Source: Amphiscolops sp. MND2022 (lineage: Eukaryota). From it: 64,000 bases of DNA. The stretch covers positions 7,008,001 through 7,072,000 of the forward strand of contig OZ076409.1 of the NCBI GenBank assembly GCA_964187785.1, given 5' to 3'. Under the pieces are notes generated by a model that saw nothing but the letters and a program-made list of their open reading frames with translations, had not been told where the DNA came from and searched no databases. Of the stretch, positions 9,488 through 17,343 are shown piece by piece (position 1 is the stretch's first letter; each line of letters begins with the position of its first letter). The position numbers and the translations under genes are program-made.

Positions 9488-10556
9488 TGAAATTTTTTCT
9501 GTTATCCCAGAAAGTGAATGGTCGGTATATCTCACCTGTGCCATACTTATTTTTGCTTTATTAAGAAGTATGGATGGGTTTCGAACCTCGTCTTTTACAC
9601 ACTTTTTTGGTGTGGCGGAAAATTTCCCGGCGCTTAACGGGTGTCTTGTTTCCGTTTTCGTCGTCATTAATATCATTTTCTCCTTTTTTGGCATTCAATG
9701 GGTCATTATTTAGTTGGAGTTCATCACTGACAACACTCGGATAGTCAAACTCAATTCTTTGTAGATTATGCTGTCTCACGGGAAAATGTTCTTTTAACTG
9801 CTATGAATAAGTTTTTGTAGAACCACTACCTTCGCATATAATGCGGAAAGACAAAAATGATGAGTCTTTTCATTCCCCCGTCCATCTCATGGGAGTATTT
9901 TCGTATAAATTAGTGTGGCAAATAGTGGGTAGAGGTAATTTTTATTCTGTTCACGGTTATTATGCGACAATTTTGGAGAAATGCGATTGTCAGGATATTA
10001 TAAAAGGTCTGAAAACCTTGAATGTAAATGAGTGTCGTTCCTGTTATAGCAGCGCAAGGTGCTTCACTGGGCAATTATGGTGGGAGAGTGTTGAAATTTG
10101 AGTGGATCCGTGTCTCCATTGGCGGCGATGTACCTTCTGTCTGTGTGTCGACATAAAACCTGCCGTTAAAGCCCGCCTTTTGCGCACATATGGCGTTAAA
10201 GCACTAGTCGAAGTTGCCCCTGCCTGGTTCAAAACTGTGACTGTTTTGACTTTCTGGACTGTCTAATCTGACGACGCCTCTGGAGCAAAGTGGCTTTGAA
10301 GATAGCCGGTTGCCGTCTGTCATTTGTCACCAGCTTAGTTTTCGATCCAATTCTCCTCCAACTGTTATCATATTCTGACTGTTTACGCTGCACCGTAATG
10401 GGAACTGTAGTGTGAAGTTACAGTAACTGTTCCGATTGTTGACATGAAGTTCTGACCTGCTGACTTGTAGTTGCAGCTAATCTCAGGATAATCTGAAGTT
10501 TCAAGATTATTGAGAAGTGAATCGGATTGCACGTGAATTCGAATTCACCGGGGAGA

Positions 10557-13500
10557 ATGATGGATAACTTGGGTTTCATGAACATTACCTCTGACATCAA
10601 CAATTCCATGTCGAGCAACAACTCAAATGGCGAGAACGAAATTGTTGCTGGGCCCGCGAGACCTTTTTGGTTCCTGTTCTGTAAGATCTTTCTCAACATC
10701 ATGGGCATGCTTGGAAACTCGACAGTTATTATAATCTATTCGAAGAAGAAAGATTTCAGACCCAGCGAATGTTTCATCCTGTCTATCGCTTCCGTCGATT
10801 TCTGCTTTTCCTTTCTCAGTTTGCTGCTTTGGGTCCTGGGCTTCTTCTCTGCAAACACGGAAACGATCAACAGTATGCTGATCACCTTTGTGATCTACTA
10901 TTCGCTCTATCTCATCTTCTGGGTCAGCTTCAATCGCTACATCGCAGTTATCAAACCCATCGATTACATGCAGATCTTTTCCAGCCGAACAGTTTTCACC
11001 ATCATCGCCACCGGATTCCTGTTCGGAGTCATTTTCGCGATGATACCAGTTCTCTACTACAACACTAGGTAGTGTTCAATACTGAAACTGAATTTAAAAT
11101 TGAAACTGAAACTGAAACTCTAGGTACTGAAACGATTTTGAAAAAACTGAAAGTGGAACTGAAACTGAATTGACAAAATAAATAAAACTAAAACTGAAAC
11201 TAGAACTGAAACATACGAAACAATTATTTCAGCAAGTCCTTGTTTGTTGCCAAACGGGGACCCTTTAGCCTCGTCCAGTTTTGTATGTTATGCTATAAAA
11301 GAAACAAATGTTATAGGCACGTTAAGGTGCAATTTGGCGCCTTAAAATTTTGTAGAACTTTTGGTAGAACTATTTTGGTCACTTCAGGTGTATCGAAACA
11401 AAAAGTGACGAAAAGCCATGACTATAGTCTACTCTTTTCTTAAGAAAAGCGCCGACTAAAAAACTGAAACAAAACTGAAACTGAAATAGATAGTAAAGTA
11501 ACTGAAACTGGATCATATAAAATTTAATTTCAGTATTGAACACTAACGCTAGGTCCGAACTCTATCACAAAATTTTGGACGCCGTCTACTATTCGAGCAA
11601 AGTTTTCTTCATTCTAGTCGACATAGTTTTCATGTGTGTCGTCTACAGCAACGTTGCATCTTTGGAGAGTCGCAAAGCCGCTAAGAAGAATGCTAACTAC
11701 AAGGGCGCTGTCACGGCCGGAGAACCCCAGTCTCATGCTTTTGGCGGGGTTGGCACCAATGCAGAAATCGGCAATTGTGCCTCCAAAAACGGAGTTAAAT
11801 TTGCCGGAGGTTAGTGAATTGACTCGTGTACTGAATATGGTGGATCGTGTTTTTCGTGTATTTTCAGGAGTCGGAAAAATTGTGCCTTTTCTCTCCCGAC
11901 CTTTCACTGAAAATTTCAAACTTCTCAAAAACTGTCCATACGATTTTTATGAAATTTAGCACAGTCATTCTACACCCTAGGGTGCTCCTGAGTGCGCAAT
12001 GCCATCAAAATAGTATTCCTGGAATCTGCGAAACGACGAAATGACAAAGCAGGTAATTAGTTTTTCAATAATCCGTTTCCGGCTCCTTTATCGCACATGC
12101 GGCTCTGGTCTCATATTGCATCGGTATCGTGTCCAAAAAAAATTATCATACACGGTAACGTGTATTGACTGAAATAAATCAAGTTTTTGAAAGATAAGCA
12201 ATTTCGTGGGAATCGATAGTTCGTGTAACGGTACCAGAAAATTCGTGTCAATTCACTGCCGGGGGTGTACCAGGGTCAATGAACGCTGCCGGGCAGAACT
12301 GTCTCAAGGAGCACCCAGTAGTTCTGGAAGAGTCTTCTTCCCGATTCAGTGTGACCCCCAACCCCGCTGCTGATGAAATTGATGTTCTGACCCCCTCATC
12401 CCATTCACCCACGCTGAAGTTCCCCTGGAGAAAGGGAAAAGGGAGGAATGCAAAGGAGAAACCCAGGAGTCTCTTCAAACTGTCGCGCAGGGCGACCGCA
12501 GAGGGCAACGTTGTGGGCACGAATGCGAATACCCCTGCCTCCATCCCAGCTGATCAAGTTCAAGACATGGAAATGAAGCAAAACGAGTAAGTACTTTATT
12601 CAATTTTCTGCAATGGCCTGACGCAATTGTTGCTGTATTGTGCAGTTCTTTTTCATTCCTTTGTTGCTAAATTATGCTTGAAATGCCTTTTGGGGTCCGA
12701 AGCAGAAATTAGCAGCAGCCGGTGTAATTTTTTAGGAGTCATTTCTCCCGACCTTTCTTTCAATGAAAATCTCAAATTTCTCAAAAACTCCGTTCGATTT
12801 ATATAAAATTTAGTACAGTCGTTCTACTACACCCAATGATGCTCCTGCGTGCGCAATGGCATCAAAATCATATAACTGTGATCTGAGAGACATAGCCAAA
12901 ATTGTTAGAAAATGGCAAAAAAAGGTCAATTTCTCAAAAACTGTTTTAACGATTCGAACGAAAATCTTTTTACAATCATTCTACCCCATATTAGAGTCCT
13001 ATGTTTGCAATGACATCAAAATCGTATGACTGTGATATGAGAAACATTAGTCCAATTTTTTGGACAACAGCAATTTTGGACTTTTTCGATTTTCTCAAAA
13101 ACTGTCCATACGATTCAATTTTAATTTGCTTTCTATTTTAATTCGTTTGCGACCCCCTTACCGCACATGCACCTCTGGTCTATCATGAAGTTCTTTGGAC
13201 TTGAAGTTGACGTGAATTTAGAGGCAAATATGATTCAGAGTGAAGACTCATTTTTAGTCGGCGCTTTTCTAGTGAAAAGTGCCCGACACTTACAGTGGCT
13301 AGTTTTTTTCCTTTTTTTTCGTCAGACTACAATCTCACTCTGATTGGGCCACTTTTCTTACAATCGAAACTACTAAAACTACTACCATAAGGCCAAGTCC
13401 GGTCAGCGGAAATTAGTGCAAAAGGGTCCCCCCCTTCATTTCTTACTATTTTAACGTAACCTACAAAACCGGACGAGACTAAAGGGTTTTTCGATCCCCC

Positions 13501-16500
13501 CTTTCGATTTTTTCCGGCATTGTGCGACTTTTTTTCGAAAATTTTTTAATGTCTCAAAAGAGTCCCCCTTTCGAGTTTTTTGATATTTTGCAACAGAATA
13601 TATGTTAATAAAGCCCAAAGGGTCCCCCTTTTACATTTTTCGGCACTAAGCGACATTTTCTGAACGAAAAAAAATCAAAAATTTCAAGTTTTTTTTAAAA
13701 AAGTCTTTGCGCTTTTTGAGCCTTAGATATAGCGCCGACTTTAGATGTTCCCGTCTTGTTTATCATGGAATTTTTGAAGAGAACCTGGTCTGAATTCAGT
13801 CGAAATGAATTTATCACAGAGGGAGGGATGATCAAAACACCTGTGTTCGTGCTGATTTGATTCAGAGGCGTCGTATTCCGAAGGCGGAGTGATCTAAGAA
13901 TATCTAATGGAGTGTCAATAAAAACTTCACAATTCTCTCAGCAGGTCTGAAAGTCAAGTCAAGAGATTACCCGCCAAGCCTAGGCTTTCTTTGCGTCCCA
14001 AATATTGCCCCCAAGGTGAGAAACTTTGAACTGAACAAACTTACCCATTCATTGACCTGGTAGGAATGGGCGTGATTTAGGAAATCTCCCTTTTCTTTTC
14101 AAAGTCAATGTTGAAATGTCCGTGCTGTGAAAATGAATTAAAATTATCATAATACTCACAACCGAATAAATTCCTCCTGAAAGATAAAATCCAAATTCTC
14201 TAAATTTCAATTAACCTGTTCGCGGTGCAGATTGTAATTGGCTTTGTGAGCTAGATCCATCCAATAATAAGATTTTGAGGTTCACAATTTTGGCGACTTG
14301 TAGTTTTTTTGCACTAAAACATGATTTCATTTATAATTTCATTTTCCATTCACAAATCATTCATAACAAAGTTCATCATTTTGTCAATCCGTTCTCACTT
14401 TGCGCTTGTGAAATATTGGTTACCAGACAAAAGCGTCCAAAAAAAACGGAGTCAAAAGCGCCCAAAATACGCAGTCAAAAGCGCAGTCAAATTGATATAG
14501 TTCGTTCAGAAATGCCAAATTAGCCGTTCGAGTCGCTTTCAATTGAGATTTGTTAGGTGTGAAAATATCAAGTCTGGCATTCCAAGTGAGTTAACTTTGT
14601 ATTTGAACACCTTCAATTAAGCTTCATTAGAGGCGGTGAAATCAACTCAGAAATTAGTAAGACGTTTTGCATGAAGGCGCTTTTGACTGGGGCGCTTACG
14701 ACTGTGTAAAATGGGCGCTTTTGTCTGTACACGGAAATATTACATTGTTGGCTCATTTTTATTTTCGGCAGTCATTTTTGGCCGACAGCGCTATTGGCCG
14801 ACTGTGCAATTATTGACCGGCAAAATAATTTCAGAACAGCGGAATCTTACAATGGACTTTACATTTTGAAAAGAATTAAATTAGGTTTTCATAGGATGAG
14901 GAAATTGACCTGATTTTGATTCGAAATGATCTAATTTGTTTTGTTCCCATTTAAATGAAAAATAGATGTGTTCGCAAACAATTTTTCATGCACATATAGC
15001 TTTTGATTAGATGCGAATTACAGTTACATAGCAAAATTGAGAATATTTTCGCTGATATCCAAGCATATTCAATCGGGTCAGCTAACTGCACAGTCGGCCA
15101 GTTGAGCGAGCGGTCGGCCGATTACACTGCCGCCGTCATTTTTGTCAATTTCATTTGCGACATCGCACAGAGGGATGAACTTAATAAGGTAATGAAAAGT
15201 CTAGTTAAACGGGGAAGTAATTTTGGCGGATACCATGAGAATTCGAAATGACTTGCATCCAAGCTTGAGACTCAAATCCCTTTGTGGGTTAGGACGGATT
15301 TTTTTAAACGGTCCTTCTGCAATTCTACACCGTCTAATTCCGTTGTTTGATGGTTAATTTATGTACAGTGCGCTTTTTCTGGACTAATCATGAAGCATCC
15401 TATTTCACCGTAACGTTGCTTTTTTAAAACTGATCCAATTAAAATTGAAAATACAGTACTGTAGTTAAGAAATCATTTTTTAGACAAGATTTGCTCAAAA
15501 AATTGGCTGAACTTTTTGAAAAACATCCGAATTAAAAGTTTCTCGAAATTTCATCTAGTTCACATTGGTATTTTGAAAAAAATTGAGACAAAATTTGAGA
15601 AAGGTACGAATGGCTGATTTTGAGCAAAATTGTGACTTTTTGCCGTTCTTCCAATTTTGACTGCTTTATCCACAGTTTTTTGGCAAGTTTTATGCCCAAT
15701 TAATTCCCATAAATCCACTGAATCCGTGAATGTATTCTGATTCAGTTTTAATTGGCTGAGAACGTCATATGGAGCCGATTTGTTGTTCACAGTATTTTAA
15801 GCCAGTGCTGTAAAGGCGCTTTAGCTTAATCGGGAAAGTGCTAGATTTCTAAGCGTAAGGTCAATGGTTCGAACCTCGCTATTAGCCGATCTTTGATGTA
15901 AAGGATGTTAAGGTGTTTTCTTCATGAATAAAACAATTTTAAAAAACTTTTTCAGACACTTCTTCACAGTTGTTTATGGTCTAGTTTCTGACTGTTCAAT
16001 TTGTTTGGTATTTTTTGTTCACAGACCATAACGCCTCGTGTGAAAGATGATATCTGGAAAAATTCAATAAAGTGAATGACTTTCATGCTTTATATTCCTT
16101 TGTTAAATTTTTGTACCACGAAATATTTAGCAACAAATTAAAAACCGGTGTGAAAACGACACAATTGTTTTACAAAATAGTCTTCCCAAGAGGAAAAAAC
16201 AATAAAATACAAAAAACAGTTTATTTCGTTAAAAACATGTTTAAAACGTTTCTCGTGAAAAGAAAACTGTATAATTAACAACCTTTGATTTAAGCTTGAA
16301 AAGGCGCTATTGCCTAATCGGTAGAATGCTAGATTTCTCAACGTAAGGTCAAGGGTTCGAACCTCGGTATTAGCCGATCTTTTATTTAAGCTCGAACCTG
16401 GACGAGTCGAAGTTAGACGTGCAGCAACAGCCGAAAAGCAGACAACTCAGTGTGGACATGACTGTTCTGGACTCGGAAGTTTCCCCCCGTCGCAAACCCC

Positions 16501-17343
16501 CCCGAGTAGCGCTGCTGAAGAAAGCCCTTACGGGCGTGGACCTTCACCCCGATCGTACGAACAACGGGGGAGGCTCCAATGACCGGGAAACTTCTGCCCT
16601 GAATCAAGGTTGTCAAGGTGTTTTATTCATGAATAAAACAAGAAAAAAACACGAATGAAATTTTAAAAAACACCATTTTTTCCTGTTTTTTTTCAGAGCG
16701 AAAAATTGAGATTAGACTTGAAAAAATGTCACCGCCGTTTTTGGGGAACAGAAACCATTCCTAATTTCAAGGACCCCTTTTTATAATCACTGAGACAAAA
16801 TTTCTGGTAATCGAAATATTTGGCAACAAATGAAAAACCGTTGTGCATAACACATTGTTTTCAACGGTAGTTTTCCCATGAGAAAAAAATCTAAAATACA
16901 AAGAAACAGTATATTTCGTTCAAAAACTTGTTTAAAATCTTTTTCGTGAAACAAACTGTATAATTAACAACCTTGCCCTGAACCTTGCAGCTGCGCCCAT
17001 CAACGTGACCCCGGGCGGAATGCTGAAACCGAGGACCTCGTTACGACAGAAACGAGTGACGTTCACCTTGTTTTTCGTCTGTTCCATCTTCATCGCTGTC
17101 ACCCTACCCTTCACCCTGGTCGAGATCCTCTCCTATGCACCCCCCATCTTCAATGCCAAACCCATCGTTGTCTATGAACTGAAACTGGTCACTTACTTGG
17201 TGTATTGTATCAATTTTGTAGTCAACCCCTTCATCTATTTCTTCGGAAACACTTTCTACCGCAAGGAACTCTTTGAGTTGATTAACAATTCCTTCTTCTG
17301 TGGAAAATGTAAGCTGTTACTCCCTCAAAACTCGGTTGCTTGA
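10557..17343 (+). CDS. Class A (rhodopsin-like) orphan GPCR, spliced: join(10557..11068,11553..11809,12274..12586,16391..16608,16991..17343), 550 aa
   Basis: Exon 1 has N-glycosylation-rich N-terminus, TM1 GMLGN, TM2 SIASVDF, TM3 SFNRYIAV, TM4; exon 2 has TM5; exon 5 has TM6 FIAVTLPF and TM7 NFVVNPFIY (NPxxY). GT..AG introns with compatible phases 2/1/2/1; total 1653 nt divisible by 3. Start codon and exact junctions are not confirmed by transcripts. Confidence 0.88.
11070..11545. mobile_element. hAT-like MITE forming GPCR intron 1
   Basis: 18-bp perfect TIR TAGTGTTCAATACTGAAA / TTTCAGTATTGAACACTA; 8-bp TSD acactagg (11062-69) / acgctagg (11546-53); internal (AAACTG)n repeats; nested HINE fragment ~11245-11463. 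Confidence 0.9.
11812..12258. mobile_element. hAT-like MITE forming GPCR intron 2
   Basis: TIR TAGTGAATTGACTCG / CGTGTCAATTCACTG; TSD ccggaggt (11804-11) / ccgggggt (12259-66); sibling copy at 42026-42720; nested HINE-C ~11862-12110. Confidence 0.88.
13251..13760 (+). mobile_element. HINE-A copy (GPCR intron 3)
   Basis: Same 5' and 3' termini. Confidence 0.75.
15454..15800. mobile_element. Tc1/mariner-type MITE, relative of 2092-2404
   Basis: TA|CAGTACTGT start; interior matches the reverse complement of 2092-2404; right end approximate. Confidence 0.7.
15815..15887 (+). pseudogene. tRNA-like sequence (second copy 16303-16375)
   Basis: TAGCTTAATCGG A-box-like, GGTTCGAACC B-box; stems degenerate. 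Confidence 0.6.
15900..16286. mobile_element. Sibling copy of the intron-4 MITE, inside intron 3
   Basis: Shares start aaggatgttaaggtgttttcttcatgaataaaacaa and end aaactgtataattaacaacctt with 16605-16975. Confidence 0.8.
16605..16975. mobile_element. TIR MITE (CAAGG termini, superfamily uncertain) forming GPCR intron 4
   Basis: TIR CAAGGTTGT / ACAACCTTG; TSD ccctgaat (16597-604) / ccctgaac (16976-83); sibling copy at ~15900-16286. Confidence 0.82.

Follow-up and report, generated by a model that had tools for sequence, protein, structure and literature searches.

Introns that originate from transposons are well documented in algae, fungi, and protists and are rare in animals; a survey of 3,325 genomes (Gozashti et al. 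2022; PMC9860276) reports introners from 175 of them, with just two animal groups among the hosts, and gives the families per-genome copy numbers of 5 to more than 2,000. Under the model developed for Micromonas, a miniature inverted-repeat transposable element (MITE)-like introner provides one splice site, and the other arises in the duplicated target (Huff, Zilberman and Roy 2016, as recounted in PMC11282704). The same review describes, in the tunicate Fritillaria borealis, non-canonical MITE-derived introns, most of which have AG-AC or AG-AT ends and which depend on a modified spliceosome (Henriet et al. 2019, via PMC11282704). Here, we analyze a 64,000-nt stretch of the genome of Amphiscolops sp. 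MND2022 (hereafter, the window; G000:C1:7008001-7072000 of a 1.07-Gb assembly in 1,929 contigs), where a gene for a rhodopsin-type G protein-coupled receptor (GPCR) is interrupted by a MITE of a family that we denote family A. The recruitment of splice sites from a target site duplication (TSD) is already described for introners; the case at this locus comes from an animal and from an ordinary, hAT-like MITE.

The comparison of the locus with its relatives makes it likely that the MITE inserted into a coding exon of the receptor gene and is spliced out scarlessly, through sites derived from the TSD and from the terminal inverted repeats (TIRs) of the element. In the scenario we propose, a non-autonomous, hAT-like element would have entered a single coding exon, duplicating the 8-bp target ACACTAGG. 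With a T as the first base of the element and AGG at the end of the target, the left junction, AG/GTAGTG (the slash marks the boundary of exon and intron), would constitute a 5' splice site, and the right copy of the target, reading ...CTAG/G, would provide a 3' splice site. The spliceosome would then take out positions 11069-11552, that is, the element together with one copy of the target, and the mRNA would be returned to its pre-insertion sequence and encode an intact seven-helix receptor. Where we speak of an intron, the word rests on comparative inference.

The interrupted receptor gene and its uninterrupted relatives

The open frame at positions 10521-11072 encodes the first four transmembrane helices (TM1-TM4) of a rhodopsin-type GPCR and ends at the TAG at 11070-11072, which is the first triplet of the inverted repeat. 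The original prediction held that the unspliced frame halts at exactly this stop, and so it does, at codon 172. The frame resumes at 11554 with SELYHKILDAVYY..., in TM5, the insertion site lies between TM4 and TM5, and all five coding pieces of the gene are open.

A search with exon 1 against 1.84 billion representative proteins yielded three close relatives, and a second search added P0097, a protein of 540 aa from a 92%-identical sister species, encoded in a 2,315-bp Logan contig that is evidently a transcript. Residues 2-171 of exon 1 align with residues 1-170 of P0097 without gaps (156 of 170 identical), and residues 1-85 of exon 2 align with residues 171-256 of the same protein (74 of 85 identical). 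In the alignments with P0002 and P0003, exactly one residue is left facing R171; the junction reads YYNTR/SELYHK in the window, YYNTK SELYHK in P0097, and YYSTG SELYRK in P0002. Both P0002 (392 aa, on a 14-kb contig of the European Nucleotide Archive, ENA) and P0003 (314 aa) come from genomic contigs, and both open reading frames (ORFs) are continuous across the sites of introns 1 and 2. The end of P0002 coincides with the point where exon 3 of the window meets a GTAAGT donor and the stop within it and, therefore, P0002 is an unspliced genomic ORF. The product obtained by removing 11069-11552 is colinear, residue for residue, with these three orthologues, of which P0002 and P0003 are genomic ORFs without interruption. 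Judging from these alignments, the ancestral GPCR gene had a single exon here, and the interruption consists of the element and one copy of the TSD, and nothing else.

The same comparison bears on the possibility that the site harbored an older intron into which the transposon inserted. Transposons are common in introns, and such a history would need no special target. However, between the exons there is only the element and one 8-bp copy of the TSD, and the genomic ORFs P0002 and P0003, which belong to related species, are uninterrupted at the site, so that we consider an older intron extremely improbable.

The only named homologue of the receptor is from the acoel Symsagittifera roscoffensis (57% identity), a single name that makes an acoel affinity of the lineage likely, and no close paralogue lacking the insertion is present, the best other genome match to exon 1 being 28% identical. 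Two ENA contigs, of 650 kb and 327 kb, carry the same exon-1 ORF, ending at the TAG of the TIR; one of these ORFs departs from the window at two residues, both in the non-coding part upstream, and matches it at all 171 coding residues. Given that the same interrupted ORF is present on two differing contigs, the insertion is not confined to one allele. In one of the automatic ORF calls, P0099, the exon-1 ORF is lengthened upstream (positions 10401-10520 of the window) by five TGA codons read as W, an artefact of an ORF caller that applied code 4 to a contig of this animal.

The element is bounded by the TIR TAGTGTTCAATACTGAAA, which occurs without mismatch at 11070-11087 (+) and 11528-11545 (-); with up to 3 mismatches allowed, the window contains no match beyond these two, against a chance expectation of 0.16. 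The arms reach 31 nt at 87% complementarity, and the two TSD copies, ACACTAGG and ACGCTAGG, agree at 7 of 8 positions. Compared with the consensus of family A, the window copy differs at 19 of 467 aligned positions (4.1%) and carries several deletions. In the other complete copies printed, position 11 differs between the TIR arms (AATACTG on the left, AAAACTG on the right), so that the RNA stem contains a U-U mismatch; the right arm of the window copy is altered (at 11538), making the 18-bp stem perfect, a change that is one of 11 private substitutions and could be due to chance. The coordinates of the element and of the receptor gene around it are collected in Table 1.

Table 1. Features of the interrupted GPCR gene and of the two MITEs within it (positions in the window)
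Feature	Position	Strand	Remarks
GPCR exon 1	10557..11068	+	ATG to the base before the donor; TM1-TM4; Pfam 7tm_1, E=6.6e-14; 156/170 identical to P0097
TSD copy 1, ACACTAGG	11062..11069	+	final G is the first base of the proposed intron
Proposed intron 1	11069..11552	+	484 nt = 476 (element) + 8; GT from TSD G11069 and TIR T11070; AG 11551-11552 in TSD copy 2
hAT-like MITE, family A	11070..11545	+	476 bp, non-autonomous
Left TIR	11070..11100	+	18 nt perfect, 31 nt at 87%; in-frame stop TAG 11070-11072 if unspliced
Right TIR	11515..11545	+	cryptic acceptor ATTTCAG (11527-11533) within the predicted TIR duplex
TSD copy 2, ACGCTAGG	11546..11553	+	holds the acceptor AG; exon 2 begins with its final G
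GPCR exon 2	11553..11809	+	TM5 and start of intracellular loop 3; residues 1-85 correspond to P0097 171-256
MITE, family B, forming intron 2	11812..12258	+	TIR T/CAGTGAATTGAC...; TSD CCGGAGGT (11804-11811) / CCGGGGGT (12259-12266)
GPCR exon 3	12265..12586	+	loop 3; start uncertain (12265 with precise excision, 12274 with use of CAG 12271-12273); ends before GTAAGT
Open frame with GPCR exon 4	16374..16655	+	limits are those of the frame; exon ends inexact
GPCR last exon	16991..17340	+	TM6-TM7, NPxxY; start approximate, after TTGCAG; 106/114 identical to P0097

Family A in the genome and its second coding copy

In line with the original prediction, the TIR of the element is repeated in the genome: the 23-nt left end has 27 matches at no more than 1 mismatch, on many contigs, and the reversed control has 0. 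With W allowed at position 11, the 18-nt end is matched exactly at 39 places. The closest other copies are 81-88% identical to the 476-bp element. Among the fetched loci, we delimited 22 complete copies of family A, on which the counts of TSDs, frames, and enrichment given below are based. Every complete copy has the same termini, and the TSD agrees at 8 of 8 positions in 11 copies and at 7 of 8 in 6, the window copy included, and is shifted or contains indels in the other 5. The complete copies are mostly short (443-537 bp in 18 of the 22 and 1,049-1,647 bp in 4), and 16 of the 18 that are under 700 bp differ from the consensus by 3.3-6.4%, the two outliers being about 20% away.

The signature of hAT transposons is an 8-bp TSD combined with short TIRs that have a YARNG-type terminus and start with TAG or CAG. 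Family A resembles the MITEs of the hAT superfamily in its 8-bp TSD and its short TIRs beginning with TAG/CAG, and we describe it as hAT-like, the superfamily being read from the TSD length and the terminal motif only. Inspection by eye, which took the place of a transposase search, revealed no ORF of at least 110 aa with an obvious transposase in the longer or one-ended copies. Internal segments of family A also have been amplified into tandem arrays, at G000:C10:4649320-4655149 and G000:C12:374038-376820, which are MITE-derived satellites. One of the arrays consists of about 50 units of about 104 bp, from element positions 209-292, and is flanked by two TIRs about 5.8 kb apart; the other derives from element positions 12-143.

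For each of the 22 copies, we rebuilt the empty site and determined how long an open frame can be read through it; the longest is 269 aa for the window copy and 590 aa, bounded by the end of the locus, for a second copy, L009 (G000:C4:1720014-1720532). These two, in the genes for the GPCR and for GCN1, are the copies that lie inside coding sequence. L009 is flanked by a perfect TSD, CATGCAGG, has the same orientation as the window copy, and splits the GCN1 frame into 108 codons, counted from the ATG, and 2,440 codons, for a total of 2,548 codons that are free of stops. The host protein contains the domains HEAT_GCN1, GNC1_N, and HEAT_EF3_N and matches once in the genome, that is, the gene is single-copy. 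The left frame corresponds to residues 1-106 of P0094 and the right frame to residues 107-404, exactly contiguous, and P0094-P0096 are uninterrupted GCN1 ORFs of 2,502-2,503 aa; a protein search with the 108-aa left exon in the range of 190-2000 aa, which leaves out orthologues of 2,500 aa, returned nothing. The first coding exon of GCN1 (L009, L043, and L044; G000:C4:1712000-1729500) is about 7.6 kb long, with about 2,550 codons, and the MITE is its sole interruption. About 6.4 kb upstream of L009, at C4:1713588, there is a TIR of family B, the family of the second MITE in the receptor gene.

For precise GT-AG excision, an element with T as its first base and A as its last needs a TSD that has AGG at its end, AGGT anywhere within it, or GGT at its start, a requirement that, by our own arithmetic, about 5% of random 8-mers satisfy. 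A TSD of this kind, on either strand, accompanies both coding copies of family A and none of the 20 others (Fisher's exact p=0.0043, from a small sample with only two coding copies). The enrichment that had been predicted, of exonic copies with a TSD ending in AGG, takes the same form, 2 of 2 coding copies against 0 of 20. Exonic insertions of family A, we infer, might survive only when the TSD allows precise GT-AG removal.

The other copies with frames of more than 100 aa were considered as coding and rejected. The frame of a ZIP zinc transporter starts immediately downstream of L008 (G000:C12:3828216-3828726), and the N-terminal frame of SERRATE/Ars2 immediately downstream of L015 (G000:C10:343780-344282); the flanks of L005 and L007 have no Pfam match except for one reverse-transcriptase fragment (L007). 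L042, with a 101-aa frame across its site, was likewise not counted as coding. For both L008 and L015, the first coding residues begin within about 10-30 bp of the copy. The hAT elements prefer the 5' ends of genes, and the placement of these two copies would fit this preference.

Intron 2 of the receptor gene is formed by a MITE of the distinct family B, with 14-nt TIR arms at 93% complementarity; its TIR has at least 182 matches in the genome and 0 in the control, and other copies of the family also have 8-bp TSDs. The donor, AG/GT, lies entirely within TSD copy 1. TSD copy 2 has lost its AG and, therefore, the acceptor is probably the CAG at 12271-12273, 9 nt downstream and in frame; exon 3 lies within the open frame 12198-12587. 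Among 12 loci of family B, with 10 complete copies, only at the window copy does a frame exceeding 150 aa run across the site. A very abundant repeat (2,001 first-look candidates) makes up the core of the intron-2 element (11878-12110), occurs again after exon 3 (12700-13140), and is nested also in the longer family A copies L020, L022, and L042; its translation contains ...ENFK(L/F)LKNCPYDF....

Proposed splice sites, predicted RNA folding, and selection since insertion

The original prediction assigned the donor GT of intron 1 to the last base of the TSD and the first base of the TIR, G11069 and T11070, and the acceptor AG to positions 11551-11552, inside TSD copy 2, and both dinucleotides are in place. 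The restored sequence that it proposed, AAC ACT AG/G TCC, is what joining 11068 to 11553 produces: the joined frame reads ...AMIPVLYYNTRSELYHKILDAVYYS, has no stop, and is colinear with orthologues that are uninterrupted at this point. When all combinations of GT donors within 11000-11110 and AG acceptors within 11500-11620 are enumerated, 5 pairs are in frame and stop-free, and only 11069/11552 keeps the length unchanged; the other four (11021/11552, 11021/11597, 11069/11597, and 11072/11597) lose 14 to 31 codons of TM4 or TM5. The donor reads TAG/GTAGTG in the GPCR gene and CAG/GTAGTG in GCN1, and the acceptor reads ...CACTAACGCTAG/G in the former and ...CACTACATGCAG/G in the latter.

The existence of four other GT..AG pairs that are in frame and stop-free, along with ATTTCAG (AG at 11532-11533), a good-looking acceptor, raises the question of whether the element is spliced mainly via other sites, so that most transcripts would carry an in-frame deletion or a frameshift leading to nonsense-mediated decay and the precise form would be minor. 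Intron 2, where the precise acceptor is no longer AG and an acceptor 9 nt downstream is probably used, lends this possibility some substance. The alternatives, however, would cost 14 to 31 codons, yet the residues flanking the junction are conserved and ungapped in the relatives. As for ATTTCAG, which was rightly predicted to be out of frame, its use adds 19 nt and leads to a stop after 4 codons in the GPCR; in GCN1, the 19 additional nucleotides would put the 2,440-codon exon out of frame. Predominant splicing through such sites is, in our estimation, quite improbable.

How the precise sites might be brought together is suggested by the predicted RNA fold of positions 11050-11570, at -113.7 kcal/mol (z=-4.8), with 0 of 100 shuffles equally stable. 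In the minimum-energy structure, the TIRs form a long terminal stem in which ATTTCAG is double-stranded; G11069 lies at the base of this stem, and the AG of the TSD falls just beyond it. Pairing of the TIRs in the pre-mRNA, then, could both join the two splice sites and bury ATTTCAG, at the cost of pairing the donor from +2 to +6. In the sense orientation, in which the element lies in both genes, its body reads (ACTGAA)n, and the opposite orientation would present many TTTCAG acceptors; avoidance of TTTCAG may be the cause of the shared orientation, a suggestion that comes from only two copies.

A different line of evidence comes from changes that accumulated after the insertions, for which we took changes private to one copy as those most likely to postdate its insertion. 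L009 has private substitutions at 22 of 516 sites and 2 private indels; over the 7,644 nt of the GCN1 frame, the neutral expectation is about 13 new stops and about 29 indels, and none are observed. Because the GCN1 frame is intact with a diverged copy of the element inside it, GCN1 is functional, and the element must leave the mRNA. The window copy has private substitutions at 11 of 462 sites and 5 private indels, which translates into a neutral expectation of about 1.5 stops (P0=0.21) and about 17 indels over the approximately 1,620 coding nucleotides of the GPCR gene; again, none are observed. Amino-acid divergence was considered as a test of selection on the GPCR and discarded, given that neutral decay confined to a single lineage would yield roughly as many differences from P0097 as are observed.

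Several observations weigh against precise and productive removal of the element from the receptor transcript. The donor GTAGTG fits the usual GTRAGT at +1 to +3 only, and its bases from +2 on sit in a perfect 18-bp stem, whereas the acceptor, ACACTAACGCTAG, lacks a pyrimidine tract and has the better-looking ATTTCAG 19 nt upstream. For the GPCR taken on its own, the argument from selection is modest, with a probability of 0.21 of no new stop, and the yardstick for indels is a repeat-rich element that may gain them faster than coding DNA does. The divergence of the receptor from P0097 (14 of 170 residues in exon 1 and 8 of 114 in the last exon), taken by itself, is compatible with a recently dead gene; the insertion can be dated by its divergence from the consensus only on the condition that the copies share a source near the time of insertion; and the enrichment test includes the mentioned small number of coding copies.

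An alternative is that the insertion broke the gene. The element then would be unspliced or inefficiently spliced, the protein would end after TM4, at the TAG of the TIR, and the receptor gene would be a null allele or a young pseudogene with downstream exons that have yet to decay. Splice signals that are weak next to a stronger, out-of-frame acceptor 19 nt upstream and a donor held in a perfect hairpin are in keeping with such a fate, as are the automatic ORF calls P0001 and P0099, which stop at the TAG, and the chance of 0.21 that the GPCR alone, if neutral, would have gained no stop. Against this, however, the five coding pieces are all open, with the last exon 106/114 identical to P0097; the 476-bp element has acquired 5 private indels and the approximately 1.6 kb of coding sequence none; and the insertion is present on two differing contigs. 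Furthermore, a broken receptor gene would leave unexplained why both coding copies, including the one in single-copy GCN1 with its frame of 2,548 codons, are associated with a TSD of the scarless type. On balance, we view loss of the gene as unlikely, even if less so than either an older intron or predominant use of other splice sites.

Possible filtering of MITE insertions and comparison with known systems

Beyond the receptor gene itself, it seems possible, although we put this forward with less than even confidence, that ordinary hAT-like MITEs are a recurring source of introns in this animal lineage, with coding insertions persisting only when the target includes AGG or AGGT and with the TIR hairpin assisting their removal. 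If this is the case, two families of MITEs split one GPCR exon into three, and one of these families split the 7.6-kb first exon of GCN1; introns then would be gained through selection acting on random insertions, without a dedicated introner, in a bilaterian group from which there is no earlier report. The locus suggests that no specialized element is needed: any transposon that starts with T and generates an 8-bp TSD could become a scarless intron at about 1 target in 20, and selection would do the rest. The model predicts that coding copies have nearly all TSDs of the types NNNNNAGG, AGGT-containing, or GGTNNNNN and lie in the sense orientation that avoids TTTCAG repeats, whereas non-coding copies are unbiased in both respects. 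How new introns originate has long been a question, and this locus offers a clean, datable case in which all the pieces are visible, namely, an intact element, its TSD, uninterrupted orthologues, and an independent second case that follows the same TSD rule. Should RNA data confirm the splicing, this genome would be suited to measuring how frequently such introns arise and what role the pairing of TIRs plays in the choice of splice sites.

There is a plant precedent as well. The exonic hAT element Ds of maize is reported, by Wessler and colleagues and by Giroux et al. in 1994, to be spliced at or near its ends, with de novo formation of an intron; reportedly, these cases are recent mutant alleles in which splicing usually leaves altered or extra sequence. 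The GPCR insertion shares with Ds the exonic position, the hAT affinity, and the 8-bp TSD, but it would be removed without any trace, and enough time has passed since it inserted for the copy to have diverged.

Among animals, no report of transposon-derived introns in acoels was found in the literature searched, and acoel names are not among the introner hosts in the searched supplements, which comprise 12 of the 14 files of PMC12130899 and part of those of PMC9860276. The closest animal parallel, as described in PMC11282704, is Fritillaria borealis, where, as proposed here, exonic MITEs bearing TIRs and TSDs are removed as lineage-specific introns of an animal genome. Unlike the introns of Fritillaria borealis, the GPCR intron obeys the GT-AG rule and would need no unusual machinery.

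The likeness to the introners of Micromonas, Aureococcus, dinoflagellates, and others extends further. Both they and family A are short, non-autonomous DNA transposons with TIRs and a TSD, and the intron is absent from the orthologous site in relatives. In introners, as would be the case for family A, the TSD provides one or both splice sites in whole or in part, and splicing does not alter the length of the mRNA. Family A, a small family, differs from the introners in the combination of an 8-bp TSD, a donor GT split between the TSD and the TIR, and an animal host. It differs also in that only 2 of its 22 complete copies are in coding sequence, below the at least 5 copies per introner family in the survey (PMC9860276). 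Most of the copies of family A lie outside coding sequence, two of them beside first coding exons, so that the family resembles an ordinary MITE sifted by selection rather than a specialized generator of introns.

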